Below, in pieces: positions 826-59,250 of a stretch of 64,000 nucleotides of DNA; position 1 is the first letter of the stretch, and each line of letters starts with the position of its first letter. The position numbers and the translations under genes are program-made. The stretch covers positions 36,892,001 to 36,956,000 of the forward strand of contig NC_086108.1 of NCBI RefSeq assembly GCF_963921235.1. Reading direction: 5' to 3'. Source of the stretch: Mobula hypostoma. Taxonomy: Eukaryota. The notes below the pieces were generated by a model. That model searched no databases, was not told where the DNA came from, and worked only from the letters and a program-made list of their open reading frames with translations.

Positions 826-1768
826 TCATGTATATCTGGTGAAGAACATCTTTAGGAGGCAAATGCTTCGAGCTTGGAGCCATCGAGACCCTTCAGAGAT
901 TCGTTGGATGCTCCAGGCAGGATGCTGCAAGGAAGGTCTCTGTGATGATGACTGTAGTCTATGAATACTTGCGCTTTGGGGAAGGCTGCAAAATAGCAAA
1001 TTGCTGGGCTTCCTATGCATATTCCTTTGGGCTAAGAGAAAAGTAAATTCAGCACAGAGCTTGGATATCCTCCCCAATGAAGCAGCGAAGAACAAATTAT
1101 GAGATGTGGCAGAGATTAGCAACAAGGGTTTGGACGATGCTGAGGCTTGGAAGATGAGAATGACAGTGACTCTGACCTCTCTAAACAAAGCAGTGTAAGG
1201 CTTTGTTTAATTTTGCAGCTGGTCACGGATCTCATTCAGGAGCAGGAATTCAATTTGCACGTTGACCCGCTAAATAGCACAATTATAGGGAGAAGCAGGG
1301 TTAGTAAAATGCAGCTGCTCTGTTTGTAAATACAAATGCTAGTCAGTGAAAATGAGAGTGTCACTCCAGGTAGATACTGTGACTTTGTTTTGAGGAGTCT
1401 CATTCTGGAAAGATAAGTATGAGGGGAAACGAAATTTCTGACAAAATGTAAGGTACCAAATTTCCTGACAGGCGCTAAACTACCAAGAAATACACACAGA
1501 ATTGCTGTACTCCAGGTAAAGCTATTTTTCAGTGGTCAACAGTGTTAGTTTCAGTATTGGGTGCACAAATTTCTAGCCTTCATCTCTAAGATAATCATTG
1601 GGTGCCTGATCAGGTAGCTGATGGCAGGGGCGTCACGTGATGACGTGGGATTGAGACGTGTAAATCCAGCTCTCCCATAAAAAATTAGCAAAGTACTGTT
1701 TAAACAAAACAAAGTTAATAAATACTTTCCGAAAACTATTTATAAACTTTGTAAGACTACTTTATGAT

Positions 1769-2853
1769 ATGCCTCCTAAACCGCAACAAAAGAAGTCTGC
1801 TGTTGCGAAGCAGCCGCGAGAGGGGAAGAAAAAAGGGCCTACTGCAACGATGGAGCCTCGGACTCAGGTTGGATCTCCTTCGGTAGAACAGGGAGCAATG
1901 GCGGCGGTAGCGGTCTCTCCGAAGAAGATGCCGGAAATGCGCATGCGCAAACCGACACAACACAAACTACAAGAACCGACAGCCACTGCAATTGAAAATG
2001 ACTCAGAGTCAGAATTGGATTCTGCAGAGAACACAGATGAAGAAGAGGAGAAAGAATTGGAAGCGATTGGAAGTAAAGGAGATGATGGAAACATAAGAGA
2101 GGCTATATTGCAATTAACGGCTGAACTAAGAAAAGTAAGAGAAGAGCTTAGAGATATGAAGATGTGCTATAATAAAGTTATGGAAAGACAGGATAAAATG
2201 GATAAGAAGATTCAGAAGATGGAAAGAGCAATGGGGCATATGAATGATAGAGTGGAAAAAACAGAAAATGATCTGCTTGTTTGGAACTCGGAAAGAAATC
2301 GACTCTTGGAGAAAGTGGACATCTTGGAAAATTTCAGTAGACGTAATAATATTAAAATTGATGGTCTTAAAGAAGGTATGGAGGGAGAAAATCCAATAGA
2401 ATTTTTTCAAAGATGGATCCCAGAAGTTTTGCAAATGAAAGAGGAGGTTCGACCAATTGAAATTGAGCGGGCACATAGAGCTTTGAGACCAAAACCAAAA
2501 GATGACCAATATCCACGATCGATTTTAATAAAATTCTTAAGATTTCAAGACAAGGAAAGGATTCTACAGGCAGCTGCTCAAGCTGCCAAGGATAGAAAAG
2601 GGCCATTGATGATTCAAGGGAACAAAGTTTTTTTCGACCCTGAACTTTGAAGAGAAGGAAGAAATTTAATCCAGTGAAAACATGGGATCACGGTTATCAA
2701 TTTATATTGCGTTATCCTGCAACCTTGAAGATTTTTTTGCCTGGTGGAGAAAAAAGATTTTTTGATGACTACCGGAAAGCAGAGCAGTTTGTGTGAGATT
2801 CTCTGAATATTCACCAGATACGAGAACAAATCCAGGGGAGCGAGATAGATTGA
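1769..2853 (+). pseudogene. L1 ORF1p (coiled coil + Transposase_22/RRM domain), frameshifted near 2640
   Basis: ORF 1769-2650 has LENFSRRNNIKIDG, EIERAHR, PRSILIKFLRFQDKERIL. The C-terminal part (RYPATLKI...FFDD) continues in another frame, with an in-frame TGA at 2794. Confidence 0.9.
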
Positions 2854-3489
2854 AGATGAAGATTGGGTCAAAGAATGGACTTGTTGGATTTTTGAAGGCG
2901 GATGAATATATAAATATATTATTAATTATACGAGGGGGGTAAGAAAGGTTAAAATTGGAGGAATATTAGTTGGGAATAATAACATTAATTTTGTCTATAT
3001 ATATATAATTTTTTTTTGTTGCAGGGGAGCTGGAAGAAGCACTGACCAATTGCTACGCTAATCATGTGTGCAAGCGTGGCTTTAGCCACGACCCGTAAAA
3101 TGGAGGGGGGTAGTGTTGTGTATCTTTTCATTCACAACATTAGTGGGGGGGGGGGTATTTTGTTTTTTTCTTTTTTTGTATCCTTTCTATCTTTTTTTTT
3201 TCTTTTTGCCTGGAGGGTTGGGGGAGGGAAACACATAGCAACATGGTGAAGTTCAAAGAGATTCCCCAAGGAACTATGAGAGTTGAGAAGATAAGTAATG
3301 TTTTAGATTGGAGTAACTTGGTTAAGAATAATGACTAATTTATTGAATTTTTTGAGTTTTAATGTTAACGGGCTTAATGGACCAGTGAAAAGAAAAAGAA
3401 TCTTAACACATATTAAGAAAATGAAGCAACACACATCAAAGTTGCTGGTTGAATGCAGCAGGCCAAGCAGCATCTATAGGAAGAGGCGC

Positions 3490-3525
3490 AGTCGACGTTT
3501 CAGGCCGAGACCCTTCGTCAGGACT
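3490..3525 (-). ncRNA. Minimal hammerhead ribozyme motif (inverted-arm copy)
   Basis: Exact reverse complement of 5162-5197. Confidence 0.8.
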
Positions 3526-4091
3526 AACTGAAGGAAGAGTGAGTAAGGGATTTGAAAGCTGGAGGGGGAGGGGGAGATGCAAAATGATAGGAGAAGACAG
3601 GAGGGGGAGGGATAGAGCCGAGAGCTGGACAGGTGATAGGCAAAATGGGATACGAGAGGATCATGGGACAGGAGGTCCGGGAAGAAAGACGGGGGGGGGG
3701 TGACCCAGAGGATGGGCAAGAGGTATATTCAGAGGGACAGAGGGAGAAAAAGGAGAGTGAGAGAAAGAATGTGTGCATAAAAATGAGTAACAGGTGGGGT
3801 ACGAGGGGGAGGTGGGGCCTAGCGGAAGTTAGAGAAGTCAATGTTCATGCCATCAGGCTGGAGGCTACCCAGACGGAATATAAGGTGTTGTTCCTCCAAC
3901 CTGAGTGTGGCTTCATCTTTACAGTAGAGGAGGCCGTGGATAGACATGTCAGAATGGGAATGGGATGTGGAATTAAAATGTGTGGCCACTGGGAGATCCT
4001 GCTTTCTCTGGCGGACAGAGCGTAGATGTTCAGCAAAGCGGTCTCCCAGTCTGCGTCGGGTCTCACCAATATAGCTTAAAAAAAAAGCCTA

Positions 4092-4868
4092 AGGCTTTTC
4101 ATTCTAGGACGAGGGAGATGTCTTCATTTTTTAAAGAAAGGGGCTTCCCTTCCTCCACTATCAACTCTGCTCTTAAACGCATCTCCCCCATTTCACGTAC
4201 ATCTGCTCTCACTCCATCCTCCCACCACCCCACTAGGAATAGGGTTCCCCTGGTCCTCACCTACCACCCCACCAGCCTCCGGGTCCAACATATTATTCTC
4301 CGTAACTTCCGCCACCTCCAACGGGATCCCACCACTAAGCACATCTTTCCCTCCCCCCCTCTCTCTGCAACCCGCAGGGATCGCTCCCTACACAACTCCC
4401 TTGTCCATTCGTCCCCCCCATCCCTCCCCACTGATCTCCCTCCTGGCACTTATCCGTGTAAGCGGAACAAGTGCTACACATGCCCTTACACTTCCTCCCT
4501 TACCACCATTCAGGGCCCCAAACAGTCCTTCCAGGTGAGGCATCACTTCACCTGTGAGTCGACTGGGGATCACCGAGTGATACTGCGTCCGGTGCTCCCG
4601 ATGTGGCCTTATATATATTGGTGAGACCCGACGCAGACTGGGAGACCGCTTTGCTGAACATCTACGCTCTGTCCGCCAGAGAAAGCAGGATCTCCCAGTG
4701 GCCACACATTTTAATTCCACATCCCATTCCCATTCTGACATGTCTATCCACGGCCTCCTCTACTGTAAAGATGAAGCCACACTCAGGTTGGAGGAACAAC
4801 ACCTTATATTCCGTCTGGGTAGCCTCCAGCCTGATAGCATGAACATTGACTTCTCTAACTTCCGCTAG
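4092..4868 (+). pseudogene. PLE polyprotein C-terminus: RT thumb/linker, CxxxxCxxC motif, GIY-YIG endonuclease
   Basis: FKERGFP...PLVLTYHP...CKRNKCYTC...FTCESTG, then after a frameshift near 4570: YCVRCSRCGLIYIGETRRRLGDRFAEH...VATHFN...LEEQHLIFRLGSLQP.SMNIDFSNFR*. Confidence 0.9.
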
Positions 4869-5161
4869 GCCCCACCTCCCCCTCGTACCCCACCTGTTAC
4901 TCATTTTTATGCACACATTCTTTCTCTCACTCTCCTTTTTCTCCCTCTGTCCCTCTGAATATACCTCTTGCCCATCCTCTGGGTCACCCCCCCCCCGTCT
5001 TTCTTCCCGGACCTCCTGTCCCATGATCCTCTCGTATCCCCTTTTGCCTATCACCTGTCCAGCTCTCGGCTCTATCCCTCCCCCTCCTGTCTTCTCCTAT
5101 CATTTTGCATCTCCCCCTCCCCCTCCAGCTTTCAAATCCCTTACTCACTCTTCCTTCAGTT

Positions 5162-5197
5162 AGTCCTGACGAAGGGTCTCGGCCTGAAACGTCGACT
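5162..5197 (+). ncRNA. Minimal type-I hammerhead ribozyme motif in the PLE pseudo-LTR
   Basis: AGTC (stem I), CTGACGA core, AGG/gtctcgg/CCT stem II, GAAA, palindromic ACGT stem III, GTC cleavage triplet (cut predicted after 5193), GACT (stem I'). Confidence 0.8.
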
Positions 5198-8100
5198 GCG
5201 CCTCTTCCTATAGATGCTGCTTGGCCTGCTGCGTTCAACCAGCAACTTTGATGTGTGTTGCTTGAATTTCCAGCATCTGCAGAATTCCTGTTGTTTGCAT
5301 TAAGAAAATGAAGATAGATTTAGCTTTTTTTACAGGAAACGCACCTAACAGAAACAGAACATCAGAAACTAAAGAGAGATTGGGTGGGTAGTGTTGTTGT
5401 GGCTTCATTTAATTCAAAAGCAAGGGGAGTAGCAATTTTGATCAATAAAACGTTACCAATTAGAATACAAAATGCAATAACTGATTCTGCCGGGAGATAT
5501 GTGATTATACATTGTCAACTTTTCTCTGAACTATGGACTTTTATGAATATTTATGCACCAAATGAAAATGATGTAAAATTCATACAAGAAGCTTTTCTGA
5601 ATTTGGCGGATGCACATGAAAAAATATTAATTGGAGGAGACTTTAATTTTTGCTTAGACCCAGTCTTAGATAGATCAACCAAGGCTGTTATAAAATCGAA
5701 GGTAGTAAATCTAACTTTATCATTGATGAAAGATTTAAATTTGATTGATATATGGAGAAGAATCAATCCTAAAGAAAGAGACTATTCGTTCTATTCTCAT
5801 AGACATAAAACTTACTCAAGGATAGATTTGTTTCTATTATCAATGCATATTCAATACAGAGTGAAAAATATGGAATATAAAGCAAGAATATTATCAGATC
5901 ATTCCCCTTTATTAATGACAATAATAATGGCTGATAAGGAAGAAGTGGCTTATAGATGGAGATTTAATTCAACATTATTAAAACGTCAAGATTTCTGTGA
6001 TTTTATGAAAAAGCAGATTCAATTTTTTTTGGATACAAATTTTCATTCAGTGGATGATAAATTTATATTATGGGATGCCATGAAAGCATATCTTAGGGGC
6101 CAGATAATAAGTTATACGTCTAAAATTAAGAAAGAATATATGGCAGAACTAGATCAATTGGAAAAAGAGATTACAAAAATAGAAAAAGAATCTCAAAGAT
6201 ATATGTCAGAAGAAAAACGAAGACAACTTGTTAATAAGAAGTTACAATATAATACGCTTCAGACATATAGAACGGAAAAAGCAATTATAAGAACTAAGCA
6301 AAGGTATTATGAGTTAAGTGAGAGAGCACATATAATTCTTGCCTGGCAGTTGAAAACAGAACAAGCTTCCAAAACAATAAATGCAATTAGAACAAGGGCA
6401 AATAAAATATCTTATAAACCTCTTGAAATAAATGAAACCTTTAAAAGTTTCTATTCTGAATTATATCAATCAGAATCACAAAATGATGTTAATGAGATAG
6501 AAAGGTTTTTATCACAAGTATCTCTTCCAAAATTGAATTTGGAAGAACAGAAGGGATTAGATATGCCTTTTACATTAAAAGAAGTTGAAGAAGCTTTAGG
6601 ATCACTCCAAAGTAATAAATCTCCAGGAGAAGATGGTTTTCCACCTGAATTCTATAAAAAATTTAAAGATTTATTATTTCCTCTCTTTATGGAACTAATA
6701 CGTCAAGCAGAAAAAACACATACACTCCCAGAATCTTTTTCAACAGCGATTGTAATAGTATTGCCAAAAAAAGACAGAGACCCTATGAAACCAACATCAT
6801 ACAGGCCTATTTCTCTATTGAATACGAATTATAAAATAATAGCAAAAATTTTATTGAATAGATTATCTAAATATTTACCAAAATTAATAAATATGGATCA
6901 AACAGGATTTATTAAAAATAGACAATTGGCAGATAATGTAACCCGGCTACTCAGTATAATTCATTTGGCACAAAAAAGGGATGAGAAGAGTATAGTAGTA
7001 GCCTTGGATGCAGAAAAAGCATTTGATAGATTAGAATGGGATTTTTTATTTAAAGTATTAGAAAAATATGGGTTAGGAACATCTTTTATAAATTGGATTA
7101 AAACTTTAAATTCTAACCCTAAGGTTAAAGTAGTGACAAACTCTCAAATTTCAACACCATTCCAGTTAAAAAGGTCAACTAGACAAGGTTGTCCATTATC
7201 ACCTGCTTTATTTGTACTGGCGATAGAGCCATTAGCAGAACTAATCTGAATTGATCCAGATATTATGGGTTTTAGAGTTAATCAGGAGGAATATGCTGAT
7301 GTTGTTTTGATTTACTTAACAAACCCACAACATTTGTTACATAAATTATCTTCTAGATTGGATGAATATGGGAAGGTATCAGGTTATAAAATAAATTGGG
7401 ATAAAAGTGAAATTTTACCTCTTACTAAAGGAGACTATAGTCAATGTCGATTAGTAACCCAATTTAGATGGCCGGTAAATGGTATAAAGTATTTAGGTAT
7501 AAGACTTGATAATGATGTAAAGAATTTATATAAATTTAATTATTTACCACTATTGAAAAAAATTCAAGAAGATTTTGACAAATGGATGATACTACCAATA
7601 ACATTAGTAGGTAGAGTCAATGTTGTAAAAATGAATATATTTCCTAGATTACAGTATTTGCTTCAAACATTACCAATACAATTGCCACAGAAGTTCTTTC
7701 AAGAGTTAAATAAATGTGAGAGAAAATTTCTTTGGAAAGGTAAAATGTCAAGAATATCATTGGAAAAATTGACATGTAAATTTGGGTTAGGAGGGTTACA
7801 ACTTCCAAACTTTAAAAATTATTATAAAGCAAATCAACTTAGATTTATTGCATCTTTCTTTGATGATCGAAAACCAGCATGGATTAAAATAGAATTAGAC
7901 AAGATAGGAGAAAATAGACCTGAAGATTTTATATATAAATGGGAATCTAAATGGATACGGGAAAAGAAAGAATCTCCTATATTAACACATTTGATTGATC
8001 TATGGAATAAGATAAATGTTGATAATGAAACACAGAAATCTCTATTAGCAAGGAGACTTTTTTCCAAAACAGACTTATTCCTTTTACAATGGGCAATCAA

Positions 8101-9202
8101 CTTTTATATAATTGGTACCAAAAAGGGATTAAATTTATAGGAGATGGTTATGAACGAGGTATATTGATGTCATTTGAACAACTAAAGGATAAATATAAAA
8201 TATCAAATAATACTTTCTTTTGTTACCTTCAATTAAGGGCTTACTTAAAAGGTAAGCTGGGCCAAACAATGTTTTTGCCAAAACCTAATGAAATTGAAAC
8301 TTTAATTCAAAAAGGGAAAATTAAAAAAATTATTTCTTGTATGTATAATTTGATTCAAGAACAGACAATTAAACAAGGAATCCATAAGTCAAAGCAAAAA
8401 TGGGAAACAGATCAGAATATTAATATTGATGAAACAAATTGGTCAAGACTCTGTCTTGACAGTATGACAAATACAATAAATGTTCGACTTAGATTAGTAC
8501 AATATAATTTTTTACACCAATTATATATTACACCACAAAAAATAAATAGATTAAATTCAAATCTATCTGATAAATGCTTTCGGTGTAATCAAGAAATTGG
8601 TAGTTTTTTACATTCTACTTGGTCTTGTTTTAAAATTCAACCCTTTTGGATAAATTTAAGAGTCTTATTGGAACAAATTACTGGAACTCAACTTCCACAT
8701 AACCCTGTATTATTTCTATTAGGTGATATTGAAGGGATAAAACCGAAACTGAAATTGAATAAATATCAGAAAGAATTTATAAAAATTGCATTGACAGTAG
8801 CTAAGAAGACTATAGCAGTTACTTGGAAATCTGATTCGTATTTAAGTATGGATCGTTGGAATAATGAAATGGCTAGTTCTATTCCACTCGAAAAAATTAC
8901 TTATAATTTAAGAGATAAATATGTAACATTTTTGAATATTTGGCGCCCTTATTTACAAAAGATAGGATGGCATATTTAAGTGCTCCGATAAAGATCTTGG
9001 TCCCTTGGGGAAAGTAATGAATAATTATACCAAATTTATTTTGAATCCCATGGAGCATGTGGAAACCTTCCAACATCCAGGCAGCTCTTCCTTTTTTTTC
9101 TCTTCTTTCTTTTTAGGTAGGACTATATATGGGGGGGAGGGGACGGTTAAGGGGAGGGGGGAGGGTAGATTTTATCTTTTCATTTATTCTTTTTGAAAAC
9201 TC

Positions 9203-10928: not shown

Positions 10929-11820
10929 CTCAGTCTGCAACCTTCACCACAAAGCCATCAATTCCATTATCCAAATCATTGACAAACAATGTGAAAAGTA
11001 GCGGTCCTAATACTGACCCCTGAGGAAAACCACAAGTCACTGGCAGCTAACCAGAAAAGGACACTTTTATTCCCACGTTGCCTCCTGTCTGCCAGCCATC
11101 CCTCTATCCATGACAGTATCTTTCCTGTAATGCCATGGGATTTTATCTTGTTAACCAGTCTCATCTGTGGCACCTTATCAAATGCCTTCTGAAAATCCAA
11201 GTAAATGATATCCATTGCTTCTCCTTTGTCCACCCTGCTTGTAACTTCCTCGAAGAACTCTAAAAGATTTGTTAGGCAAGACTTCCCTTCACAGAGACCA
11301 TGCTGACTTTGACTTATTTTATCATTAGTCTCCAAGTACCCCAAAACCTCATCCTTAATAATGGACTGCAACACTTTCCCAACCACTGAGGTCAGGCTAA
11401 CTGGTCTATAATTTCCTTTCTTTTGCGTTCCTCCCTTCTTTAAGAGTGGAATGACATTTTCAATTTTCCAGTCCTCCGGAACCATGCCAGAATTAGGTGA
11501 TTCTTGAAAGATCATTACCAATACATCTGCTGTCTCTTCAGCAACCTCTTTCAGGACTCTGAGATGTAGTCTGTTTGGTCCAGGTGACTTATATACCTTA
11601 AGACCTTTCAGTCTGCCTAGGACTTTTTCCATTTGTAATAGCAATGGCACTCACTCCTGCTCCCTGACACATACGGACCTCTGGCACACTGCCAGTGTCT
11701 TGAGCGGTGAAGACTAATGCCATGTACTTATTTAGTCCATCTGCCATTTGTTTTTCCCCCATTACTACCTCACCAGTATCAACTCTCACCTCCCTTTTAC
11801 ACTTTCTATAACCTAAAAAA
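10929..11820 (-). mobile_element. CR1 LINE RT fragment
   Basis: ORF 10976-11650: KSPGP, VPEDWK, GNYRPVSLTSVVGK, KSCLTNL, YLDFQKAFD. Confidence 0.9.
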
Positions 11821-11825
11821 AAAGG

Positions 11826-12810
11826 AGGCTGCACCAGGAATACTGAATACAATAAACAATCATGATGGATTCATGCGTGAAGTGCTGCCTCACCTGGAAG
11901 GACAGTTGAGGTCCCTGAATCGTTGTGAAGGATGAGGTGTAAGGGCAGGTGTAGCATTTATCATGGTTCTAGGGATAAGTACCTAGAGGAGTATGAGGGG
12001 TGATTGATAAGTTCGTGGCCTAGGGTAGAAAGAGTCAATTTTGGAAAACCTAGCACATATAATTTTTCAACATAGTCTCCTCCTACATTTACACACTTAG
12101 TCCAGCGGTCCTGGAGCATATGGATCTTGGACCTCCAGAAAGTGTCCACAGCAGGGGTGATTGATAAGTTCGTGGCCTAAGGTAGAAGGAGATGAGTTAT
12201 ACAGCTCTCGTTACATGCACATGCTGTTCAACTCTTTGAGTGATTATGCAGAAAGTTTGAAGTTAATCACTCATCAGGGGTGATTGGTAAGTTTGTGGCC
12301 CAAGGTAGAAGGAGATAAATTATTAACTTCAAACTTTCTGCATAACCACTCAAAGAGTTGAACTGCATGTGCATGTAATGAGAGCCGTATAACATCTCCT
12401 TCTACCTTAGGCCACGAACTTATCGATCACCCCTCCTATCGGTGAGAAGAGCGACCGGACAAGGGAATCACAGAGAGAGTGACCTGTGGGGAAAACAGAG
12501 AGGAGAGGGGAATGTGTCACTGGTGGTGGAATCCTGTTAGAGATGGTGGAAGCTATGGAGAATGATATGTTGGATGTGGGGAGGTTGTTGAGGTCAAGGG
12601 GAATTCTACCCTTGCTACGTTAGGCAGATGGGGTGAGGGCAGCTATGCAGGAAATGGAGATGTGGGTGAGGCCTGTATTGATAGCGGTAGAGGGGAATCC
12701 TCATTTCCTAAAAAAAAGAGGATATTTTGTTGCTCTGCTGAAGGATCTTTGAGTTTTTTTCTGTACAGATGCTACCTGACTGGTATTTTTCAGCATTTAC
12801 TATATTTTTT
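11826..12810 (-). mobile_element. Old PLE remnant (minus-strand body plus a short plus-strand 3'-end copy at 12730-12810), split by a mariner MITE
   Basis: Reverse-complement similarity to 4110-4600 (GAAGTGCTGCCTCACCTGGAAGGAC, AAGGGCAGGTGTAGCA). Degenerate CTGCTGAAGG...AGATGCTACCTGAC on the plus strand. Confidence 0.65.
11994..12436 (-). mobile_element. Mariner-derived MITE with nested TIR copies
   Basis: TA flanks at 11992-3 and 12437-8. TIR GAGGGGTGATTGATAAGTTCGTGGCCTAAGGTAGAAG. Minus-strand remnant RWTKCVNVGGDYVEK matches a mariner transposase C-terminus. Confidence 0.85.
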
Positions 12811-13623: not shown

Positions 13624-16121
13624 TAGTGCCCATCACCACCCACCCCTCCCCCAGCTTTGGAAGTTTTCATGTTTTATTATTTTACAACATTGAATCACAA
13701 TGGATTTAATTTGGCTTTTTTGACACTGATGAACAGGAAAACACTCTTCCGTGTCAAAGTAATAACAGATCTCTACATCGTGGTCTCAATTAATTACAAA
13801 GATAAAACAGAAAATAATTGATTGCATAGACATTCACCCCCTTCAAGTCAGTATTTAGTAGATGCACCTTTGGCAGCAATTGTAGCCTTGAATCGGTGTG
13901 GATATGTCTCTATCAGCTTTGCAGATCTGGACACTGCAATTTTTCCTCATTCTTCTCTACAAAACTGCTCAAGCTCTGTCAGATTGCATGGGATCATGAG
14001 TGAATAGCCCTTTTCAAGTCCAGCCACAAATTCTCAATTGGATTGAGGTCTGAACTCTGACTTGGTCATTCCAGGACATTATCTTTGTTATTTTTAATCC
14101 ATTCCTGTGTAGCTTTGTTTTTATGCTTGGGATCATTGTCTTGCTGGAAAACAAATCTTCTCCCAAGTCACAGTTTTTTGCAGACTGCATTAGGTTTTCC
14201 TCCAGGATTTTCCTATATTTTGCTGCATTCATTTTACCCTCTACCTTCACAAGTCTTCCAGGGCCTACTGCAGTGAAGCATCCCCACAACATGATGCAGC
14301 CACCACCATACTTCATGGTAGGGATGGTGTGATTTTGATGTGTGGTGTTCAGCTTATGCCAAACATAGCATTTAGCCTGATGACCAAAAAGCTCAATTTT
14401 GGTTTCATCAGACCATAGAACCTTCTACCATCTGACTCCAGAGATTCCTATATGCCTTCTGGCAAACTCTAACTGAGATTTCATGTGAGTTTTTTCAACA
14501 GTAGTTTTCTCTTTGCTATTTCCCCATAAATTTGTGACTGATGAAGTACCTGAGTAACAGTTGTTGTATGTGCAGTATCCCCAGTCTCAGCCACTTGTAG
14601 CTTGTAGCTTCTTCAGAGCTGTCATAGGGCTCTTGGTGGCCTCCCTCACTAGTCCTTTACTTGTACGGTCACTCAGTTTTTGAGGATGGTCTGCTGTGGG
14701 CAGATTGAGGCTGAACTCCTGCCTCAGCAAAACCGATGGCGATTTGCCTATTGCTACAATAGGTCAACAGCAGATGCAATCTCCATGGCGCTTCACACAG
14801 CCTTAGACCACCTGGACAACACAAACAACTATCTCGGGATGCTGTTCATTGACTATAGCTCAGCATTTAATACCATCATTCCCATAATCCTGATTGAGAA
14901 ATTACAGAGCCTGGGCCTCTGTACCTCCTCCTGCAATTGGATCCTCAATTTTCTAACTGGAAGACTACAATCTGTGCGGATTGGTGATAACATCTCCACC
15001 TCGCTAACAATCACACTGGTGCACCTCAGGGGTGTGTGATTAGCCCACTGCTTTACTCTCTCTATACCCATGACTGTGTGGCTAGGCATTGCTCAAATAC
15101 CATCCATAAATTTGCTGATGATACAACCATTGTTGGTAAAATCTCAGGTAGTGACGAGCGGGGGTACAGGAGTGAGATATGCCAACTAGTGGAGTGGTGT
15201 CGCAGCAACAACCTGGCACTCAACGTCAGTAGGATGAAAGAGCTGATCGTGGACTTCAGGAAGGGTAAGATGAAGGCACACACTCATGATTCAGGAACAG
15301 CTTTTTCTCCTCTGCCATCCGATTCCTAAATGGACATTGAACCCTTGAACACCACCTCACTTTTTAAAATATATATTATTTCTGTTTTTTGCATGATTTT
15401 TAATCTATTCAATATACATATACTATAACTGATTTACTTATTTATTATTATTATTACTTTATTTTTTTCTTCTTTATTATGTATTGCATTGAATTGCTAC
15501 TGCTAAGATAACAAATTTCATGACACATGCCAGTGATAATAAAGCTGATTCTGATTCTGAGTCTGATTCTGATTTACAGCTGAACCATATTCTTTCCATT
15601 TCCTGATGCTTGACTTAAGTGATTGACTCAAGAGATTTTCAGAGACTTGGAAATTTTCTTGTATCCATCTTCTGACTTGTGTTTTTCAATAACCTTTTCA
15701 CGAAGTTGCTTGGAGTGTTCTTTTGTCTTCATGTTGTAGTTTTTGCCAGGATACTGACTCACCAACAGTTGGACCTTCAGATATGGGTGTATTTTAACAA
15801 TAATCAATTGACTCACCTTGACTGTACACAGTGATCTCCATTTAACTAATTATGTGACTTGTAAAACCAATTGGCCGCACCAGTGATGATTTGGTCTGTC
15901 ATATTAAAGGGGGTGAATAGTTATAGAATCAATTATTTTGTGTTTTTTATTTGTAATTAATTTAGATCACGTTGCAGAAATTTGTTTTCACTTTGACACG
16001 AAGGAGTATTTTTCTGTTGATCAGTGACAAAAAAAGCCAGATTAAATCCATTGTGATTCAATGTTGTAAAACAATAAAACATGAAAACTTCCAAGGGAGG
16101 TGAATATTTTTATAGACATTG
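13624..16121 (-). mobile_element. Tc1-like IR/DR DNA transposon, decayed, interrupted by Rex1
   Basis: About 215-bp inverted repeats (13624-13843 and 15908-16121) with inner and outer ATTCACCCCC-type DRs, TA at 16122. Transposase pieces MKTKEHSKQLREKV...GYKKISKSL and KYGGGCIMLWGCF...MNAAKY. Confidence 0.9.
14707..15574 (+). mobile_element. Rex1/Babar LINE fragment (internally deleted) inside the Tc1
   Basis: [45 protein letters not shown]. Ends AATAAA plus (GATTCT)n. GATT is shared at both junctions. Confidence 0.85.
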
Positions 16122-21960: not shown

Positions 21961-23145
21961 ACCATTATCTTGACTATACCTCTTCCCATCTTGTCTCCTA
22001 TAAAATGCTGTTCCCTTTTCTCTGTTCCTTTGTCTCCACCAGATGTTCCCGGGATTGTGCTTTCCTTTCCAGGACATCAGAGATTTCCTCCTTCTTTAAA
22101 GAACAAGTTCCCTTCCTCCACCACAGGTGCTGCCCTCGGTCGCATCTCCTCTATTTTCTGTACATCCGCACTCACCCCATTTTCCTGCTGCCTTAACAGT
22201 GACAGAGTTCCTCTTATCCTTGCCTACCACCCCATGAGCCTCTGAATACAACATATTATCGTCTTCAGCCGTCTCCAAAGGAGTCCTACCACCTAACACA
22301 TCTTTACCTCCCCACCCCTCCAATTTCCAGAGGGATCAGTCCCTCCGGGATTCCCCTGTCCATTCATCCCTCCTCAATATTCTCCGTCTTGGCACTTACA
22401 CTTGCAAATGGCCGAAGTGGTACACCTGTCCATTCAGCCCCTCCCTCAGTTCCATTCAGGGCCTCAAATAGTCCTTCTGGTGAGGCAACACTTCATCTGT
22501 GAATCTGCTGGGGTCATCTAAGTTGTCCGGTGCTCCCAGTGCAGCCTCCTCTATATTGCTGAGACCCATCAAAAATTGGGGGACTGCTTCATTGAACAAC
22601 TCCGCTCCATCCACCGAAAGCAGAACTTCCCGGTGGCCAAACGTTTTAATTCTGATTCCTATTCCTGTTCCGACATGTTGTTCCATGACCTTCTCTTGTG
22701 CCAAGATGAGGCCACCCTAAGGGTGGAGGAGCAACACCTTATATTCCACCTGGGTAGCCTCCAATCTGATGGCATGAATATTGATTTTTCTTTCTGCTCC
22801 TATTTCCCACTCGGGTCACTTACCTTTTCTCACCTGCCTATACCCCTGTGTCTCTTCCTCCTTCCCTTTCTCCCATGGTCCACTCTCCTCTCTTATCAGA
22901 TTCCTTCCTCTCCAACCCTTTACCTTCCTTACCCATCTGGCTTCACCTATCACCTTCTAGCTATCCTCCTTCCCAACCCCCCAACTTTTTCTTCTGTCAT
23001 CTTCCCCCTTCCTTTCCAGTCCCGAAGCAGGATCTTGGCCGGAAATGTTGACTCTTCATTTCCACGGATGCTGCCTGACCTGCTGAGTTCCTCCAGCATT
23101 TGTGTGTGATGCTTTGGATTGCCAGCATCTGCAGACTTTCTCATG
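21961..23145 (+). mobile_element. Older PLE, 5'-truncated, non-inverted
   Basis: 10-bp TSD TTCAGATTTG (21951-21960 and 23146-23155). GIY-YIG C-terminus (EEQHLIFHLGSLQSDGMNIDF). Degenerate hammerhead at 23018-23053 and a full 3' tail. Confidence 0.85.
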
Positions 23146-34485: not shown

Positions 34486-35148
34486 GAAAGAAGAGAAAAT
34501 CTGCAGATGCTGGAAATCCAAGCAACACACACAAAATGCTGGAGGAACTCAGCAGGCCAGACAACATCTATGGAAAAAAGTACTGTCAATATTTCGAGCC
34601 GAAACCCTTCAGCAGAACTGGAGAAAAAAAAGGCTGAGGAGTAGATCTGAAAGGTGGAGGGAGGGGAGAGAGAAACACCAGGCGATAGTTGAAACCTGGA
34701 GGGGGAAGGATGAAGCAAAAAGATAGGAAGTTGATTGGTGAAAGAGACTGAAGGCCATGGAAGAACATTGATTTCTCAAATTTCCAGTAATGCCTCCATC
34801 CCCCCATTCAGATTCACTATATCCCATCTCCTTGTCCCTCTCTCACGTTATCTCCTTGTCTGCCCATTGCCTCTCTCTGATGCTCTTCCCCTCCCCCCCC
34901 AGCCCCTCTTTCTTCCATGGCCTTCTGTCTCTTTCACCAATCAACATCCCAGCTCTTTGCTTCATCCCTCCCCCTCCAGGTTTCACCTATCGCCTGGTGT
35001 TTCTCTCTTACCTCTTCCACCTTTCAAATCTCTTCAGCATTTTTTCTCCAGTCCTGCTGAAGGGTTTCGGCCCGAAACGTTGACTGTACTTTTTTCCATA
35101 GATGCTGCCTGGCCTGTTGAGTTCCTCCAGCCTTTTGTGTGTGTCATT
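34486..35148 (-). mobile_element. Fold-back PLE 3'-end element
   Basis: Minus arm 34486 to about 34760 with full tail. Plus arm from about 34761 to 35144 ends at TGTGTGTGT. Imperfect TSD TATAGAATCA/TACAGAATCA (34476-85 and 35149-58). Hammerhead-like motifs at 34584-34619(-) and 35050-35085(+). Confidence 0.85.
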
Positions 35149-36917: not shown

Positions 36918-37040
36918 GACACGTGCAAAATGCTGGAGGAGCTCAACGGGTCTGGCAGCATCCATGGAAGTAAATGAACATTTGATGTTTTAGGCCAAGA
37001 CCCTTCATCAGGACTGAAAAGGAAGGGAGAAGTTAAAGGT
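36918..37040 (-). mobile_element. PLE pseudo-LTR fragment
   Basis: AAAATGCTGGAGGAGCTCAAC...GACCCTTCATCAGGACTG, with a degenerate hammerhead. Confidence 0.75.
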
Positions 37041-40344: not shown

Positions 40345-41474
40345 CAAACACGAGAAAGTCTGCAGGTGCTGGAAATTCAAGCAACACTGACAGAATGCTG
40401 GTGAATGCAGCAGGCCAGGCAGCATTGATAGGAAGAAGCACAGTCAACGTTTTGGGTCGAGACCCTTCATCAGGACTAACGGAAAAAGAGGTAGTAAGAG
40501 ATTTGAAAGTGGGAGGGGGGGGGTAGATTTGAAATGATAGGAGAAGACAGGAGGGGGAGGGATGAAGCCAAGAGCTGGGAAGTTGATTGGCAAAAGGGAT
40601 ACAAGGCTGGAGAAGGGGGAGGATCATGGGATGGAAGGTCTTGGGAGAAAGAAAAGGGGAGGAGAGCACCAGAGGAAGATGGAGAACAGGCAAGGAGTTA
40701 TTGTGAGAGGGAAAGAGAGAAAAAAAATTAAAAATTGGGGATGGGGTAAGAAGGTGAGGAGGGGCATTAACGGAAGTTAGAGGAATTTATGTTCATGCCA
40801 TCAGGTTGGAGGCTACCCAGACGGAATATAAGGTGTTGTTCCTCCAACCTGAGTGTGGCTTCATCTTGACAGTAGAGGAGGCCGTGGATAGACATATCAG
40901 AATGGGAATGGGATGTGGAATTAAAATGTGTGGCCACTGGGAGATCCTGCTTCCTCTAGCAGGTAGATCCATGGCCTCCTCTACTATCGAGATGAAGCCA
41001 CACTCAGGTTGGAGGAACAACACCTTATATTCCATCTGGGTAGCCTCCAACCTGATGACATGAACATTGATTTCTCTAACTTCTATTAATGCCTCTCCTC
41101 CCATTCTTACCCCATCCCCAATTTTTAAATTTTTTTTCTCTCTTTCCGTCTCACGACAACTCCCTGCCTGTTCTCCATCTTCCTCTGGTTATCCCCTCCC
41201 CCTTTCTTTCTCCCTCTGCCTCCCGTCCTATGATCCTTTCCCTTCTCCAGCCCTTATCTCTTTTGCCAATCAACTTCCCAGCTCTTAGCTTCATCTCTCC
41301 CCCTCCTGTCTTCTCCTATCATTTCAGGTCTCCCCTCCCCCTCCCACTTCCAAATCTCTTACTATCTCTTTTTTCCATTAGTCCTGACGAAGGGTCTCGA
41401 CCCAAAATGTCGACTGTACTTCTTCCTATAGATGCTGCCTGGCCTGCTGCATTCCACCAGCATTTTGTGTGTGT
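40345..41474 (-). mobile_element. Fold-back PLE with perfect 13-bp TSD
   Basis: TSD AGCTTAACTAGCT at 40332-40344 and 41475-41487. Minus arm 40345 to about 40955, plus arm about 40967-41474. Both arms carry the GIY-YIG C-terminus. Hammerhead-like motifs at 40442-40477(-) and 41380-41415(+). Confidence 0.92.
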
Positions 41475-42469
41475 AGCTTAACTAGCTACTAACCAGTTTA
41501 CACTATCACCTAACTACCCCACTGTTTGGCCAAGGTTCTGGTTAAAAAAAAAGGTGAGGGGAGAAAATACTGAAATAAATCAAAAGCAGTGAAGTACAAC
41601 TTTGATTTGTTTTGAGGACACCTGAAGTGAAAGTGTGCAGTGGTATTTAGCTATTGAAAATGTGACCTGACATATAAAACTTAATGGATATTTTACAGTA
41701 AAACTGCTTCATTTTGCTAAGTCTGTTGGACATGTCATGGCTTAGCTATCCCCAACAGCACTATCACTCTCCTCCAAACCAGCCCCCCCGCCCCCACCAA
41801 ATGCACCACCACCGGGAATTGCTTTGAAGACCGTTGGAGTCCTGTCCACGTGCAGAAGGCTCCAGTAGCTCGCCTTAGGTTTAGCTAATTTCAGCCAACC
41901 TTCAGACCTTTTCATTTAGATGTGCGGGGCTTCAGTTCATCATTCTGATGCATCACGTGTTTTTTTGTCAGTAATTTTTGTGCAATGAATTCAGTGCCAC
42001 CATTGTAAAGCAGGATGTCGATAGAAACATCATGATAGCTGAAGGCAACAGGAAACATAGCTGTGATATCTAAATACACCCTCTAATTTTTACACTAATA
42101 ATGAAACTGGAAATTTTCATTAGTGCCAAAGACAGCTTAGAATATAATTGCTATTATATGATTATTCCTATAGGGCAGTATTTAATGATCATTTAGCAAT
42201 ATGGAAGACCTATACATATCGCCAATAATTTGATTTAATTTACCGCAGACATTGGTTCTATTTTGAGATTTAAAAGAAAGATTGATTTGTGTAGATTGGT
42301 GCATTATACTGGTAAGCTTTCCAATTTGCTTATGCTTAAATGAATTCATTGTTCTTTTGTTAGAAATATTATGTAACAATTATGCATAATTACTGTATGT
42401 ATAATTGGTATGCAGTAGTTAGATGTCCACAAGCTAACGTAACTTATTATCATTAATTGGTAGCTCTCT

Positions 42470-43574: not shown

Positions 43575-43820
43575 GCGTTCCTTCTTCACCTTTCCTGCCT
43601 ATCACCTCCCTGCTTCGCCTCCCCCACCCCTTTATCTTTCCCCTTACTGGTTTTTCACCTGGAACCTACCAGCCTTCTCCTTCCCACCCTCCCCCCACCT
43701 TTATAGGGCTTCTGCCCCTTCCCTCTTCAGTCCTGACTAAGGGTTCCGGCCCGAAGCATTAACTGATCGTTTCCACGGATGCTGCCCGACCTGCTGAGTT
43801 CCTCCAGCGTGTTGTGAGCA
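43575..43820 (+). mobile_element. PLE pseudo-LTR fragment
   Basis: CT-rich tract, degenerate hammerhead at 43729-43764, GATGCTGCCCGACCTGCTGAGTTCCTCCAGC. Stops at GTTGTG. Confidence 0.8.
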
Positions 43821-45277: not shown

Positions 45278-46239
45278 ACATTATGTTGTAGTTGTATAAG
45301 TCATTGATGAGAGCTTACCTGAGTACTCTATACAGTTTTAATGACCATGTTATTGGAAAGACATGGATAAGCCATAAAGGATAGAGAAAAGATTTATGAG
45401 GATATAGCCAGAACTGGTGTTATAGAGGAAGATTGGTCAGATGAGATTTTTATATTTTCTTTAAAGAGGCTTATAAGATCATGAGGGCCATAGATAAGGT
45501 GGATGGCAGCAGTCTTCTCCCCAAGGTAGGGGAGTTCAAAATCAGGGTGACATAGATTTAAGGTGGGAGAGACAAGATTTAAAAGAGACTTAAGGACAAC
45601 TTTTTCATGCATAGGGTGCTGAGTATATGGAATAAAGAAGTTAGAGGAAGAGGTTGAGGCAGGTAGAATATTATCAATGAAGGTTATTGGATAGCTATAT
45701 ACAGGGGCGGGGCTTTGAAGATACTGGCCAAATAAAGGAAATTGGGTTGACCTGGGTGGACACCCCTGTTGACCTGGGGGGCCATACTGCTTTATGACTC
45801 TATGACTCTGTCATGGCCTGGTCAATGTTCATCCCCAGATCAAGACTATTATTATTGGATGAACATTTCTGGATTCAGATTTTCAAACATGTTCCAATTA
45901 TTACCACATTTCAAAACTATTTCATTGACTGAAAAGTGCTTTTGGATGTAGAGAGACTGTAAAAAATTTTATGTCAGGACAAATGTGTTCTTGATTTTAC
46001 ATTGAAAAGTATTGCCTGAACATCCCATTGCCAATTCCCTATCCACAGAGGAACATTGCATTTTGGTTAAGTACTATATCCAGAGATCTGAAGAATTGAA
46101 CTGATGACTCAAGTTTAGATCTCACCATGGCAATAAGGAAAATTAAATTCAGTTAAGTGTCTGATACCATCAGATTGCCACAATCTCATCTTGTTCACCA
46201 ATGAACTCAGAGAAGAAAAACTGCCACCCTTAACTGACA

Positions 46240-49200
46240 GAATAGGCCAACGACACATGACAAAGTAGATCAACGTCAGCATGGTTTCCTTAAGCGGAAA
46301 ACTTGCTTGACAAATCTGTTGGAAATCTTTGAGGAAATAACAGGCCGGATAGACAAAGGAGAGTCAGTGGATATTGTTTACTTGGATTTTCAGAAGGCCC
46401 TTGACAAGGTGCTGCACATGAGGCTGCTTAACAAGTTAAGAGTCCATGATATTACAAGAAAGATACCAGCACGGTTAGAAGATTGGCTGACTGGCAGGAG
46501 GCAAAGAGTGGGAGTAAAGGGGGCTTTTTCTGGTAGGCTGCTGGTGTCCAGTTGTGTTCCACAGGGGTCTGTCTTGGCACCGCTGCTTTTCGCGTTTTAG
46601 GTCAATGATTGGGATGATGGAATTGATGACTTTAGCCAAAGTTTGTGGACGATACAAAGATAGGTGGAGGGCTTCTCCGTGGACTGTCACCTTGTCGTGG
46701 TGGAGAGACTTGTGTGGTCCTGTGATCCCGAGAGCGATGCCATCTGGAGCTATGCTCCTGGTAGGGTCACTCATGGCGGTAAGGTCGAGGATGAGGTCCC
46801 TGACAAAGAACAATCCAACCAAGACCTCAACGGTGGAACAGGTGGACAAAGTTACTTCGAACTCAACAGCTGTGAAAGCGGATGAAGGCTGCAACAAATC
46901 TATCAGCTCCAATTGTTGTGGTTTCCATGCCATTGGAATCAATTGGTTGATTTGTGAAGTATCATGTGATTCTTGGAGAGCAACGTCAAGTACACGTTAA
47001 ACAAATACACGCACAGGCATCTTCGCTCTGTGGGCCACTTCTTCAAGTCTGTCGGCGATCGGGGGAGGGCGACGGGAGCAGGCAATGTGATGGCTGGAAG
47101 CTCCTGGTCAAGAACTGGCACGTAAGCGGTGAATACTTGATTCAGTCGCTCAACTTTTGGACAGAAGCAGGAAAGTTGTTCAGCAGCAGTATTCACGTCT
47201 GAGCATCCCTATTTAGGATCCACTCTGCTCACCCTGAACTGGGAAAGGGCTAGAAAAGGTACCCTAAAAATAGTCTGCTTCACCCCATCCTGTATGGAAA
47301 GCCGCGTCCAGAGGGATCACCATCATGTGGTCGAAAAACATTGAGAAGTGAAACTATGAAATTTGGAACCTGGAATATATGAACTCTGATGGATAACCCA
47401 AACTCCGACCGACCAGAGAGGAGAACTGCCTTTGTTGCCCAGGAACTCCAAAAATTCAACTTTGACATTTTTGCTCTGAGTGAGACCCGCAGAGCTGGAG
47501 AAGGGCAACTAAAGGAAGAGCAAGGTCAATACAACTTTTTCTGGAAAGGACTTGATCTTGAACAACTGAGGATCCATGGAGTAGGTTTTGTTATCCGAAA
47601 CAGCCTACTTCAGAAGCTGACAGGGCAACCACTGGGAATCAATGAATGTCTCATGACTCTGCGAATCCAGCTTGTCAAGAATCAAGATCTGGATAAATGA
47701 AGACGTACCAGCAGACTTTAGAGACTCAGCAATCGTTACCATCTACAAAGGGAAAGGCAATCGATTTGAATGCGGAAACTATTGTGGAATTTCCCGTTAG
47801 CAACAGCAGGAAAGATCCTCACCCACAGCATGAACAACTGGCTCAAGCCTTTAGCCAAGAAGATCCTTCCAGAGACACAAGCCGGTTTTAGACCATCAGG
47901 TGGAGCAATCGACATGATCTTCACAATGGGACAACTACAAGAAAAATGTCGTGAATAACTTCAACCTTTGTACATGGCATTCATCGACCTCACCAAAGCC
48001 TTTGACTCGGTATCAAGGGAACTCTTATGGGATGTCCTATCCACCTATGGATGACCTGAAAAGTACTTTCGAATCCTGAGTCTCCTCCACGATGACATGC
48101 TTGCCACAGTCATGGTCAGCAACAGTAACTGTAGTAACTGTGAGCCTTTTCAAGTTAGATCAGGAGTAAAACAGGAGTAAAGCAGGGATGCGTGATTGCT
48201 CCAATCTTATTCACCATCTTCATTGTGACAATCATCCACATTATTGAGCACGACCTACCCCCCAAGAATCGAAATTGTCTACAGAGCAGATGGCAGACTT
48301 TTCAATCTTGCCCGTCTCAAGTCCAAAAACAAGACATCCGCGAGTTCCATCATCGAGTTCCAATACGCAGATGACAACAGTGTTGCAGCTCTTTCAGAAA
48401 ACAACCTACAACAGATTCTGACTGCCTTCAACCATGCATACATGAAACTTGGGCTTAATCTTGGACATCAATTCCAAGAAGACTCAGATCATCTACCAAC
48501 CGTCACCAACTGAGACAAATCGGATAGAACCATCAATTCAAATTGACGAAATAACACTGGAAAACATGGACCACTTTCCGTATCTTGGAAGTCATCTCTC
48601 CTCCAATGTCGACCTTAATGACGAGATCCAACATCGTCTTCAATGCGCTGGAACAGCTTTTGGACGTCTCCAAAAAAAAGTCTTCCATGATCGTGACATC
48701 CGAACAGACACCAAAATGTTAGTGTACAAAGCAGTGGTAATCCCAACACTCCTGTATGCATCAGAAACCTGGACAACATACCGACGACATCTGAAGGTAC
48801 CTGAAAAGTTCCATCAATGCTGTCTTCGAAACATCTTAAATATCATCTGGGAAGATAGAAGAACCAACGTCAGTGTGCTAAATGAAGCAAAAACAACAAG
48901 CATTGAAGCCTACATCATCAAGATCCAACTAAGATGGAGCGGTCATGTTGTTCGGATGAAAGACGAACGTCTGCTGAAACAAATCTTCTACTCCCAGCTT
49001 AAAGAAGGCACACGTAAAAGAGGCGGACAACAGAAGTGATTCAAAGACGTCTTAAAAGCCAACATGAAGAAATGTAACATCGACATCAACAATTGGGAAA
49101 CCAATACCAAGGACAGGAAACTCTGGCAAGCCGTCATCCGAGAAGGAACAGCAACTTTCGAAGCCAACAGATGTGCAGAATTAGAAGAAAAGAGAAGAAC

Positions 49201-50103
49201 ATGGAAAGAGAGGCAGCAACAACCAAAGCCTGATCTGCCATCTGGAACTACCTGTCCTAAATGCAAAAGAACTTTCAAAGCCAAGATTGGACTGATAAGC
49301 CACTTGAGAGCCCATAAATAGATCATTAGAATGAAGACCATCATCCTCGACCTCGAAGGATAGCCACGATGAGGTGGAGGGGCAGGTAGTTTTGAGGAAG
49401 TTGAGAGGCTACATAAGGACCTAGACAGATTAGGAGAATGGCCAAAGAAATGGCAGATGGAATACAGTGTAGGGAAGTGTATGGTCATGCACTTTGGTAG
49501 AAAGAATAAAGGTATAATCTATTTTCTAAATGGGGAGAAAATTCAGAAATCAGAGGTGCAAAGGGATTTGAGAGTCCTCATGCAGGATTCTGTAAAGGTT
49601 AAGTTGCAGGTTGAGAGAGATCGAGAATACAAAAGCAAGGAAGTGATGCTGAGGGTTTATAGGGCACTGGTCAGACTGCTCTTCGAGTATTGTGAGCAGT
49701 TTCCGGCCCTTTATCGAAGAAAAAATGTACTGACATTGGAGAGGATCCAGAGGGGGTTCACAAAGATTATTCCAGGAATGAACAGGTTAATGAATGAGGA
49801 GGGTTTGAAAGGCCTAGAGAGAGTGAATATGGAAGAATCTAGGACCAGAGGCACAGTTCAGAATAGAAGGACATCCATTAGAAAAGAGAAGAGGAGGAAT
49901 TTGTTTAACAAAATGATGGAATTCATTGTCACAGACAGATGTGTAGATAAGCAATTGCGCATATTTAAGAGTGTCAAAGATTATGGGGTGAAAGCAGGGG
50001 AATGGGGTTGAAAGGGATAATAAATCAGCCACGATGGAATGGCAGAGCAGACTCAATGGGCTGAATGAGCTAATTCCGCTCTCATGTCTTATGGCCTTAT
50101 GGT
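46240..50103 (+). mobile_element. CR1 RT-to-3' end fragment split by the RTE insertion
   Basis: CLTNLLE, YLDFQKA, VPQGSVLAP, KFVDDTKIGG, interrupted then resumed at 49372. Ends CTTATGGCCTTATGG. Confidence 0.85.
46672..49371 (+). mobile_element. RTE (BovB/Expander-like) LINE, both ends intact, internally deleted
   Basis: 10-bp TSD AGGTGGAGGG (46662-71 and 49372-81). FGTWNI, RPERRTA, ALSETR, HGVGF; RT QAGFRP, AFIDLTKAFDSV, GVKQGCVIAP, QYADD, YLGSHL, LRWSGHVVRM; C-terminal CPKC...SHLRAH. Confidence 0.92.
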
Positions 50104-54679: not shown

Positions 54680-54943
54680 TCTATTTCTGGAATTTCCAGT
54701 AATTGGTCTTGATTTCACTCTGCCCTCCCCCTGGTTCCACATATCACTAACCACCTTGTACTTCGTCCCCTCCCCCACCTTCTTACTCTGTTTTTCTCTT
54801 CTTTTTCCAGTCATGATGAATGGTCTCAGCCCAAAATGTCGACTGTTAACTCTTTTCCATAGATGCTGCCTGCCCTGCTGGGCTCCTCTAGCATCTTGTG
54901 TGTATTGCTTTGACTTCCAGCATCTGCAGATTTTTTTTTTCCA
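54680..54943 (+). mobile_element. PLE pseudo-LTR fragment with 3' tail
   Basis: Degenerate hammerhead at 54809-54844, CATAGATGCTGCCTG...CCAGCATCTGCAGA. Confidence 0.8.
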
Positions 54944-56276: not shown

Positions 56277-56450
56277 CACTCAGAAAATGTTGGAGGAGCT
56301 AGCAGGCCAGGCAGCGTCTATGGAAAATAGTCTTGGCCTGAAACGTCGACTGTACTTTTTTTCATAGATGCTGCCTGGCCTGCTAGTTCCTCCAGTAATT
56401 TGTGTGTGTTGCTTGGATTTCCGGAGTTCGCAGATTTTCTTTTGTTTGTG
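56277..56450 (+). mobile_element. 174-bp miniature fold-back PLE
   Basis: 56277-56327 is inverted relative to about 56357-56408. The loop holds the 3' half of the hammerhead (GGCCTGAAACGTCGACTG). Full tail. Imperfect TSD ATCATGAGGTAG/ATCCTGAGGCAG. Confidence 0.8.
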
Positions 56451-58364: not shown

Positions 58365-58622
58365 TAAAAGTGGTTGGGGTGTTGGGCTAGTGATCTGAAG
58401 GTCGTGAGATTGAGCCCCAGCTGAGGCAGCATGTTGTGTCCTTGAGCAAGGCACTTAACCAAACATTGCTCCAGTCCACCCAGCTGAAAATGGGTACCGG
58501 TAAAAATGCTGGGGGTTAACCTCGTGATAGACTGGCATCCTATCGGGGGGGGGGGGGATTCTCGTACTCTCAGTCGCTTCACACCACAGAAGCCGGCATA
58601 AGCACCAGCTGATGAGCCTGTA
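58365..58622 (+). mobile_element. tRNA-derived SINE
   Basis: AGTGGTT head and GTGTCCTTGAGCAAGGCACTTAAC core shared with the 44611 SINE. Confidence 0.7.
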
Positions 58623-59250
58623 ATAGAGGAATAGCGTATAGGAGCAGGGATGTGATGTTGAGGCTCTATAAGGCACTGGTGAGACCTCACTTGGAGTACT
58701 GTGGGCAGTTTTGGTCTCCTTATTTAAGAAAGGATGTGCTGACGTTGGAGAGGGTACAGAGAGGATTCACTAGAATGATTCTGGGAATGAGAGGGTTAAC
58801 ATATGAGGAACGTTTGTCCGCTCTGAGACTGTGCTCCTTGGAGTTTAGAAGAATGAAGGGAGACCTCATAGAAACATTTCAAATGTTGAAAGGCATGGAC
58901 AGAGTGGACGTGGCAAAGTTGTTTCCCATGATGAGGGAGCCTAGTACAAGAGGGCACGATTTAAGAATTGAAGGGCGCCCATTCAGAACAGAAATGCGAA
59001 GAAATTTTTTTAGCCAGAGGGTGGTGAATCTATGGAATTTGTTGCCATGGGTGGCAGTAGAGGCCAAGTCATTGAGTGTATTTAAGGCAGGGATTGATAG
59101 GTATCTGAGTAGCCAGGGCATCAAAGGTTATGGTGAGAAGGCAGGGGAGTGGGACTAAATGGGAGAATGGATCAGCTCATGATAAAATGGTGGAGCAGAC
59201 TCGATGGGCCGAAGGGCCAACCTCTGCTCCTTTGTCTTGTCTTATGGTCT
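58623..59250 (+). mobile_element. Young CR1 3' end
   Basis: Open ORF 58652-59158 (LYKALVRPHLEYC...TRGH...FFSQRVVNLWN), 3' hairpin GGGCCGAAGGGCC, CTTATGG tail. Confidence 0.9.

Follow-up and report, generated by a model that had tools for sequence, protein, structure and literature searches.

A 36-base sequence at positions 5162-5197 of a 64-kb stretch of the Mobula hypostoma genome (the window, by which we mean the whole stretch analyzed) is, as sequence comparison supports, a minimal hammerhead motif. It lies in a pseudo-LTR of a Penelope-like retrotransposon that is young and very abundant. Together with an identical motif on the opposite strand it belongs to one 5'-truncated insertion at 3427-5298, of which the two 'strands' are simply the two arms; they are therefore not independent copies. 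Our overall account, which we hold with good confidence, is that a minimal hammerhead in a pseudo-LTR arrived here in one two-armed insertion, probably copied from uncut RNA, and that its cutting would be weak and either dimeric or aided by protein.

The motif itself is ordinary, its class is already published, and the family is a very abundant further member. Of more interest are the copy ends. Many sister copies have their 5' end at the front edge of the ribozyme, and what is new is that terminal repeats running into the next unit lack this pile-up (1 of 27). The role of hammerheads in Penelope-like elements is described as an open question (PMC8557442). In this context, tens of thousands of near-identical copies are useful, as their ends record where copying started and stopped. 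They bear on the use of uncut templates, on a sharp stop at the front edge of the ribozyme that is confined to the first pass, and on inherited changes in core and stems.

A two-armed insertion in a LINE

The forward arm contains, in order, the end of the RT thumb, a Cys linker, the GIY-YIG coding region, a pyrimidine-rich UTR, the hammerhead and a 38-nt tail (Table 1). Its GIY-YIG coding region has a stop at 4866-4868 and a frame broken near 4567-4580, where a short rearranged stretch disrupts it. An RNA spanning the two arms would fold into a hairpin of 647 bp with the motif paired inside it. The very small sub-lineage to which this insertion belongs (48 arms genome-wide) is recognized by one extra base after the motif; 12 pairs have that base in both arms, and both arms therefore come from one source. 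We also considered whether a separate non-autonomous element of 1.2 kb begins at 4092 and rejected this: relatives extend into the RT, and 4092 is only the truncation point of this copy. ORF2 of the host LINE is broken near its start by the Penelope-like insertion and also by later stops and frameshifts. The LINE is fairly young and has a close relative in locus L042; the Penelope-like insertion splits it at an AT-rich site.

Table 1. Features of the window discussed in the text, in window numbering
Feature	Position	Strand	Remark
Host LINE	1664..8979	+	coiled-coil ORF1; AP-endonuclease/RT ORF2 from 3331
Target-site duplication, left	3412..3426	+	15 bp
Inverted arm	3427..4073	-	equals 4614-5260, without tail; 3 mismatches in 647 bases
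Identical hammerhead motif, inverted arm of same insertion	3490..3525	-
A-rich filler between arms	4074..4091	.	18 bases, not element sequence
Forward arm, 5'-truncated Penelope-like copy	4092..5298	+
5'-end pile-up zone of sister copies	5146..5175	+
Minimal type-I hammerhead motif	5162..5197	+	predicted cut after C5193
Target-site duplication, right	5299..5313	+	15 bp
Older copy	23018..23053	+	core changed at U4 and A9
Older copy	34584..34619	-	A6C; inverted pair with 35050
Older copy	35050..35085	+	A6C
Older copy	36980..37015	-	G12A
Older copy	40442..40477	-	G12A; inverted pair with 41380
Older copy	41380..41415	+	G12A
Copy of another lineage	43729..43764	+	core changed at G8 and A15.1
Older copy	54809..54844	+	core changed at C3 and G12
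Short fold-back copy	56295..56448	+	only 3' half of motif

Core, stems and fold of the motif

As the original prediction stated, the hammerhead core is complete at 5162-5197(+) and in its mirror at 3490-3525(-), the two 36-mers being identical: C3 U4 G5 A6 N7 G8 A9, G12 A13 A14 A15.1, U16.1 and C17 (5193) are all present. The 36-mer thus contains the core CUGANGA, GAAA and UH of type I minimal hammerheads. It also has pairable stems I and II, the extra base between 9 and 10.1, and at 15.1-16.1 the palindrome ACGU (5189-5192) without a helix III. The four pairs predicted for stem I hold and are probably joined by a fifth at 5161/5198, U·G here and C-G in older lineages. Stem II is pairable as claimed, in a better register than the one proposed: GGGU/GCCU gives 4 bp with an extra A after A9 (position 5173) and -6.0 kcal/mol, against -4.6 kcal/mol for the 3-bp A-U register. 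Its pair 10.1-11.1 is a G·U (5174/5185) in place of the canonical G-C, a pair described as typical, not strictly required, and the second most conserved (PMC3088659). The palindrome taken for stem III is present but is only that, since a helix is impossible in the monomer.

The best monomer fold (-10 kcal/mol) is non-catalytic, with G5-G8 of the core paired to the cut site. The best predicted dimer also differs from the catalytic form, with dimer energies that are not decisive, and folding z-scores are unremarkable. An Rfam scan of the 64-kb window, a check suggested with the original prediction, matched no hammerhead family even at E<=5, which we infer is because the hammerhead models likely need helix III; the scan returned eight weak matches, all below gathering scores. 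The prediction from its sequence is weak cutting that requires either a dimer or the element's protein; the two copies in this insertion are likely inert.

Abundance, decay and inherited changes

The expectation of a very abundant family bearing the ribozyme motif was borne out; the family is Penelope-like, with a CxxxxCxxC linker of Neptune type. The exact 36-mer has 32,886 matches in the genome (3.48 Gb) and its reversed control none, so the matches are not chance. Core-intact motifs number 83,219, of which 60,216 have U11.1 and 23,003 C11.1, and motifs with A6C 2,124 (controls 0 in each case). An unselected 1.08 Mb holds 103 motif-like copies, which, if typical, extrapolates to ~330,000 genome-wide. 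Another lineage accounts for 5,450 counted arms.

Conservation was assessed in 33 older copies, for which the selecting anchors lay outside the motif. By column it is 0.85 in the core and 0.81 and 0.80 in the stems, against 0.63-0.65 upstream and 0.72 downstream. The full core is kept in 4 of 33 older versus 22 of 28 young copies. The original prediction held that core bases should be better conserved than flanks. This is so across the older lineages, but within a young lineage (67 copies) core and non-core decay equally, with non-CpG changes at 6/603 and 15/1139 positions (p=0.65), as expected of dead copies. A core that is conserved across lineages and decays like the rest within young copies indicates that the motif is kept in source copies and decays freely afterwards. 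A check of the stems gave no two-sided covariation among common pair types (117 of 204 copies with upstream sequence), the copies varying too little; the structure therefore rests on the motif match and not on compensation.

Two changes mark whole sub-lineages. One young sub-lineage has U11.1, which replaces G10.1-C11.1 by G·U, in every copy (37/37), and an older one is distinguished by A6C (7/11 versus 2/39 others). A6C variants are described as having low activity (PMC3088659). Judged by sequence, both would be heritable weakening changes. Mere CpG decay as the origin of U11.1 was rejected for the youngest sub-lineage, given 37/37, and explains many older copies.

The eight related copies listed in the original prediction (23018, 34584(-), 35050, 36980(-), 40442(-), 41380, 43729 and 54809) all lie where they were placed, differing from the 36-mer by 4-10 mismatches. 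Among the three partial copies, the one near 56331 is real; those near 12735 and 51000(-) amount to no more than short, degenerate remnants. The figure of about a dozen copies stands for positions and fails for intactness: only 2 of 11 scored copies (5162 and 3490) have the full core, the eleventh scored being a copy at 56316. The other nine lack one to three core bases each; four of them have G12A and two A6C. Older lineages contribute three more head-to-head inverted pairs, at 34487-35144, 40345-41479 and 56295-56448.

Assignment of the element

Relatives of the forward arm run upstream into an RT with visible DKG and YIDD, the CxxxxCxxC linker and GIY-YIG. RVT_1 and GIY-YIG were found in loci L033 and L039 with scores below the Pfam curated cut-offs, and the nearest Atlas clusters to the L033/L039 protein carry the same two families. 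The single ORF with RT and C-terminal GIY-YIG expected of an EN+ Penelope-like element is found in these two loci, at those sub-cut-off scores. Pseudo-LTRs, tandem and inverted units, a one-sided tail and a target duplication are likewise present. In relatives an ATG follows the motif by ~170 bases.

CxxxxCxxC preceding the GIY-YIG motif matches the CX2-5CxxC linker between RT and EN of Neptune, which is described as common to Neptune and Nematis (PMC8557442). Among vertebrates, only Neptune and Poseidon are reported as found (bioRxiv 10.64898/2026.07.22.740005). Linker motif and host range, rather than an RT tree, thus support assignment to a Neptune-type Penelope-like element. A non-LTR retrozyme, for which non-coding tandem units with a hammerhead are the criterion, was rejected: locus L031 consists of coding units of 3,516 bases in direct tandem. 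A long LTR-retroelement pol-like frame, L031:6494-8884(-), adjoins the triple tandem of the Penelope-like element there. The pseudo-LTR stretch is present in sequencing runs of eight organisms, three with at least half its words, and close relatives therefore exist in other species.

Where copies end

For the 3' ends we used the first 100 of 76,845 exact matches (one contig) of a 35-mer 3' of the motif. Fifty-eight arms end at 5248-5266, 41 at 5288-5306 and one runs on, giving two preferred ends at ~5258 and ~5296. In all 15 inverted pairs detected, one arm is tailed and the other tail-less.

The 5' ends concentrate in 5146-5175, where 36 of 85 arms at risk begin (11x the upstream rate, p=1e-19). 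An unselected sample gave 12/39 after one edge-cut arm was dropped (7x, p=3e-6). Among unpaired arms of the insertion's own sub-lineage the count is 14/18 (19 loci representing the 48 arms of that sub-lineage, less one censored arm). Of the 17 solo arms whose duplication is 9 bases or longer, 11 start at 5148-5169. Genome counts agree with the pile-up, a 35-mer spanning 5141-5175 occurring 31,578 times (one variant excluded) versus 76,845 downstream. Starts at the predicted cut site, 5193-5195, show no significant excess (pooled 4/24, p=0.12). A genomic trace of cleavage at 5194 was dismissed on this pooled count; it had appeared as three arms in one sample, and two nearby starts fit fold-back through stem I.

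Pseudo-LTRs that run into the next unit behave differently. Here the 5146-5175 zone contains the start of just one of the 27 at risk, versus 36/85 (p=1e-4), and a wider zone gives 3/27 (p=1e-3). Among the same junction copies, which are the 30 best-scoring and not a random draw, 24 extend beyond 5030 and none starts at 5190-5197; 28 continue for at least 1,600 bases, and two (L043 and L044) come from one array. Loci L182 and L213 have a common 5' start (4368) and junction sequence, which suggests that a source copy was rearranged and then spread; common flanks also link L178 and L237, probably through duplication.

Probable copying from uncut RNA and possible causes of the pile-up

The two-armed structure probably arose when the element endonuclease nicked both target strands ~15 bases apart. 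Both strands would then prime reverse transcription at two internal sites, on RNA with an uncut hammerhead, and the two cDNAs would be joined head to head. A plain block by the ribozyme sequence was rejected as the cause of the pile-up: it is absent from terminal repeats running into the next unit (1/27, p=1e-4), the enzyme evidently passing the ribozyme when it reaches it later. We tentatively prefer a different cause, which may well be the right one though we would not rely on it. Many templates would have their 5' ends just before the ribozyme, and the enzyme, tail-primed 100-135 bases downstream, would run off; RNAs with an internal ribozyme, made by read-through or circular, would give the long and tandem copies. 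The sequence around 5162 is compatible with an initiator consensus. However, such templates predict full-length copies starting at the ribozyme edge, and with only 1/27 among pseudo-LTRs running into the next unit two RNA populations are needed. A possible alternative, to which we give clearly less credence, is a template boundary such as limits copying in telomerase. The protein would anchor on the pseudo-LTR RNA where it starts, through the hammerhead fold or the preceding pyrimidine tract, with a first-pass stop at the front edge of the ribozyme and read-through later. Consistent with this, the stop position is fixed whichever of the two start sites is used, the stop is absent where the enzyme has copied a whole unit before meeting the pseudo-LTR (1/27 versus 36/85, p=1e-4), and A6C and U11.1 lineages still spread. 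Protein-assisted ribozyme folding is reported in PMC11167929, but templates truncated at the 5' end gave a shorter product there, which fits run-off, and a mixed RNA population gives the same counts. The strongest form of this reading strikes us as unlikely: the hammerhead fold would be mainly a protein-bound template boundary rather than a cutter, and would halt the RT only on the starting pseudo-LTR, yielding short and fold-back copies, with read-through on later passes. If true, it would link Penelope-like elements to telomerase-style template limiting and explain the spread of lineages with weakened ribozymes.

Readings that give the ribozyme or the spliceosome a larger part fare less well. 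Routine cutting of tandem transcripts into circularizing units, with partial tandems made by copying round the circle, was proposed in PMC4209133 and agrees with a core conserved across lineages and with exact tandems whose upstream ends are random (24/30 junction copies). Yet starts at 5194 are not in excess (0/30 junction copies), read-through of tandem arrays such as L031 yields the same pattern, and weakening changes are inherited; we consider a ribozyme active in this way improbable. A little less probable still is a splicing origin, in which a 3' splice site like that of Drosophila virilis Penelope would lie at the front edge of the motif and the stop would be due to a splicing intermediate or to splicing factors on the RNA. 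The 20 bases before the AG are a median 0.9 pyrimidine (33 copies), and an intron ending at helix I is reported (PMC4209133, PMC2377424). However, the whole UTR is pyrimidine-rich, the AG and its preceding base belong to stem I, no sense joint onto 5164 occurs at any locus examined, and no GT..AG joint is among those listed. Spliced copies were sought and none found among the loci examined; joints ending at the first base of the motif are likely diverged UTRs of other lineages. Finally, the original prediction had fold-back copies placing a working ribozyme on whichever strand is transcribed. There is indeed one sense motif per strand, and the genome holds 83,219 core-intact motifs, but neither strand offers a second motif in cis with which to build the dimeric stem III, and the two arms would pair with each other over 647 bp (3 mismatches). 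The core moreover decays neutrally after insertion, and the inverted arrangement is a known insertion by-product (PMC8557442, PMC3846280). These observations lend the claim little or no support, and functional host ribozymes seem to us very improbable indeed.

In our overall account the spread of the element does not need fast cutting. As the ribozyme is kept between lineages, it probably acts rarely, trimming or circularizing tandem RNA, or serves as structure.

Relation to known systems

Lunse et al. (RNA Biol 14:1499) are said to have found small hammerhead variants that cleave as dimers. The motif is of the same class, going by their title and a review (PMC6765202). That pseudo-LTRs of Penelope-like elements carry minimal hammerheads was correctly stated in the original prediction. 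Cervera and De la Pena (2014, PMC4209133) described this metazoan class, including opposite-strand pairs, with no activity as monomers and low activity as dimers, and reported it in fish Neptune, Poseidon and Xena elements; the available text of their account makes no mention of cartilaginous fishes. Our motif resembles theirs in being type I with a 4-5 bp stem I, an extra base between 9 and 10.1 and a palindromic 15.2-16.2 without helix III. It also shares the location in pseudo-LTRs and the occurrence mostly as single truncated copies with opposite-strand pairs. It differs in copy number, which is far above the 4,000-9,000 of coelacanth and Xenopus (obtained with a different search method), in the G·U at 10.1-11.1 of its youngest lineage, and in having 32,886 identical copies where theirs are heterogeneous.

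The closest functional comparison is PAc, a Poseidon of Anolis studied by Frangieh et al. (2024, PMC11167929), in which cutting is protein-assisted and dispensable for insertion, uncut RNA is the template and there are two start sites. Shared features are two internal reverse-transcription start sites that give the tail, extension of both strands, and a hammerhead ~100-140 bases upstream of the start sites on uncut RNA that is copied. In contrast to PAc, the present family has the CxxxxCxxC linker, an ATG ~170 bases after the motif rather than inside it, and a 5'-end pile-up at the ribozyme edge, none being described for PAc in the available text. The insertion also resembles known EN+ Penelope-like units in its 5' truncation, head-to-head inverted copy, one-sided 30-40 bp tail and target duplication (Craig et al. 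2021, PMC8557442; Arkhipova et al. 2013, PMC3846280); the available text of these accounts gives no counts of arm starts relative to the ribozyme. Animal non-LTR retrozymes, with one chondrichthyan sampled, have a type I hammerhead related to that of pseudo-LTRs, but are tandem non-coding repeats, whereas the sequence here is part of an element that is autonomous and coding (bioRxiv 10.64898/2026.07.22.740005). We found no account of 5' ends piling up at a ribozyme in the main text of the openly available literature that we searched.

Other sequences in the window

A hairpin of ~100 bases at 12244-12347 has a weak, sub-threshold Rfam match. By appearance, 14014-14424(-) is a Tc1/mariner-like transposase fragment, and 10976-11650, 46238-46600, 49373-50011, 58616-59158 and 48446-49039 are frame fragments of CR1/L2-like and RTE-like LINEs.
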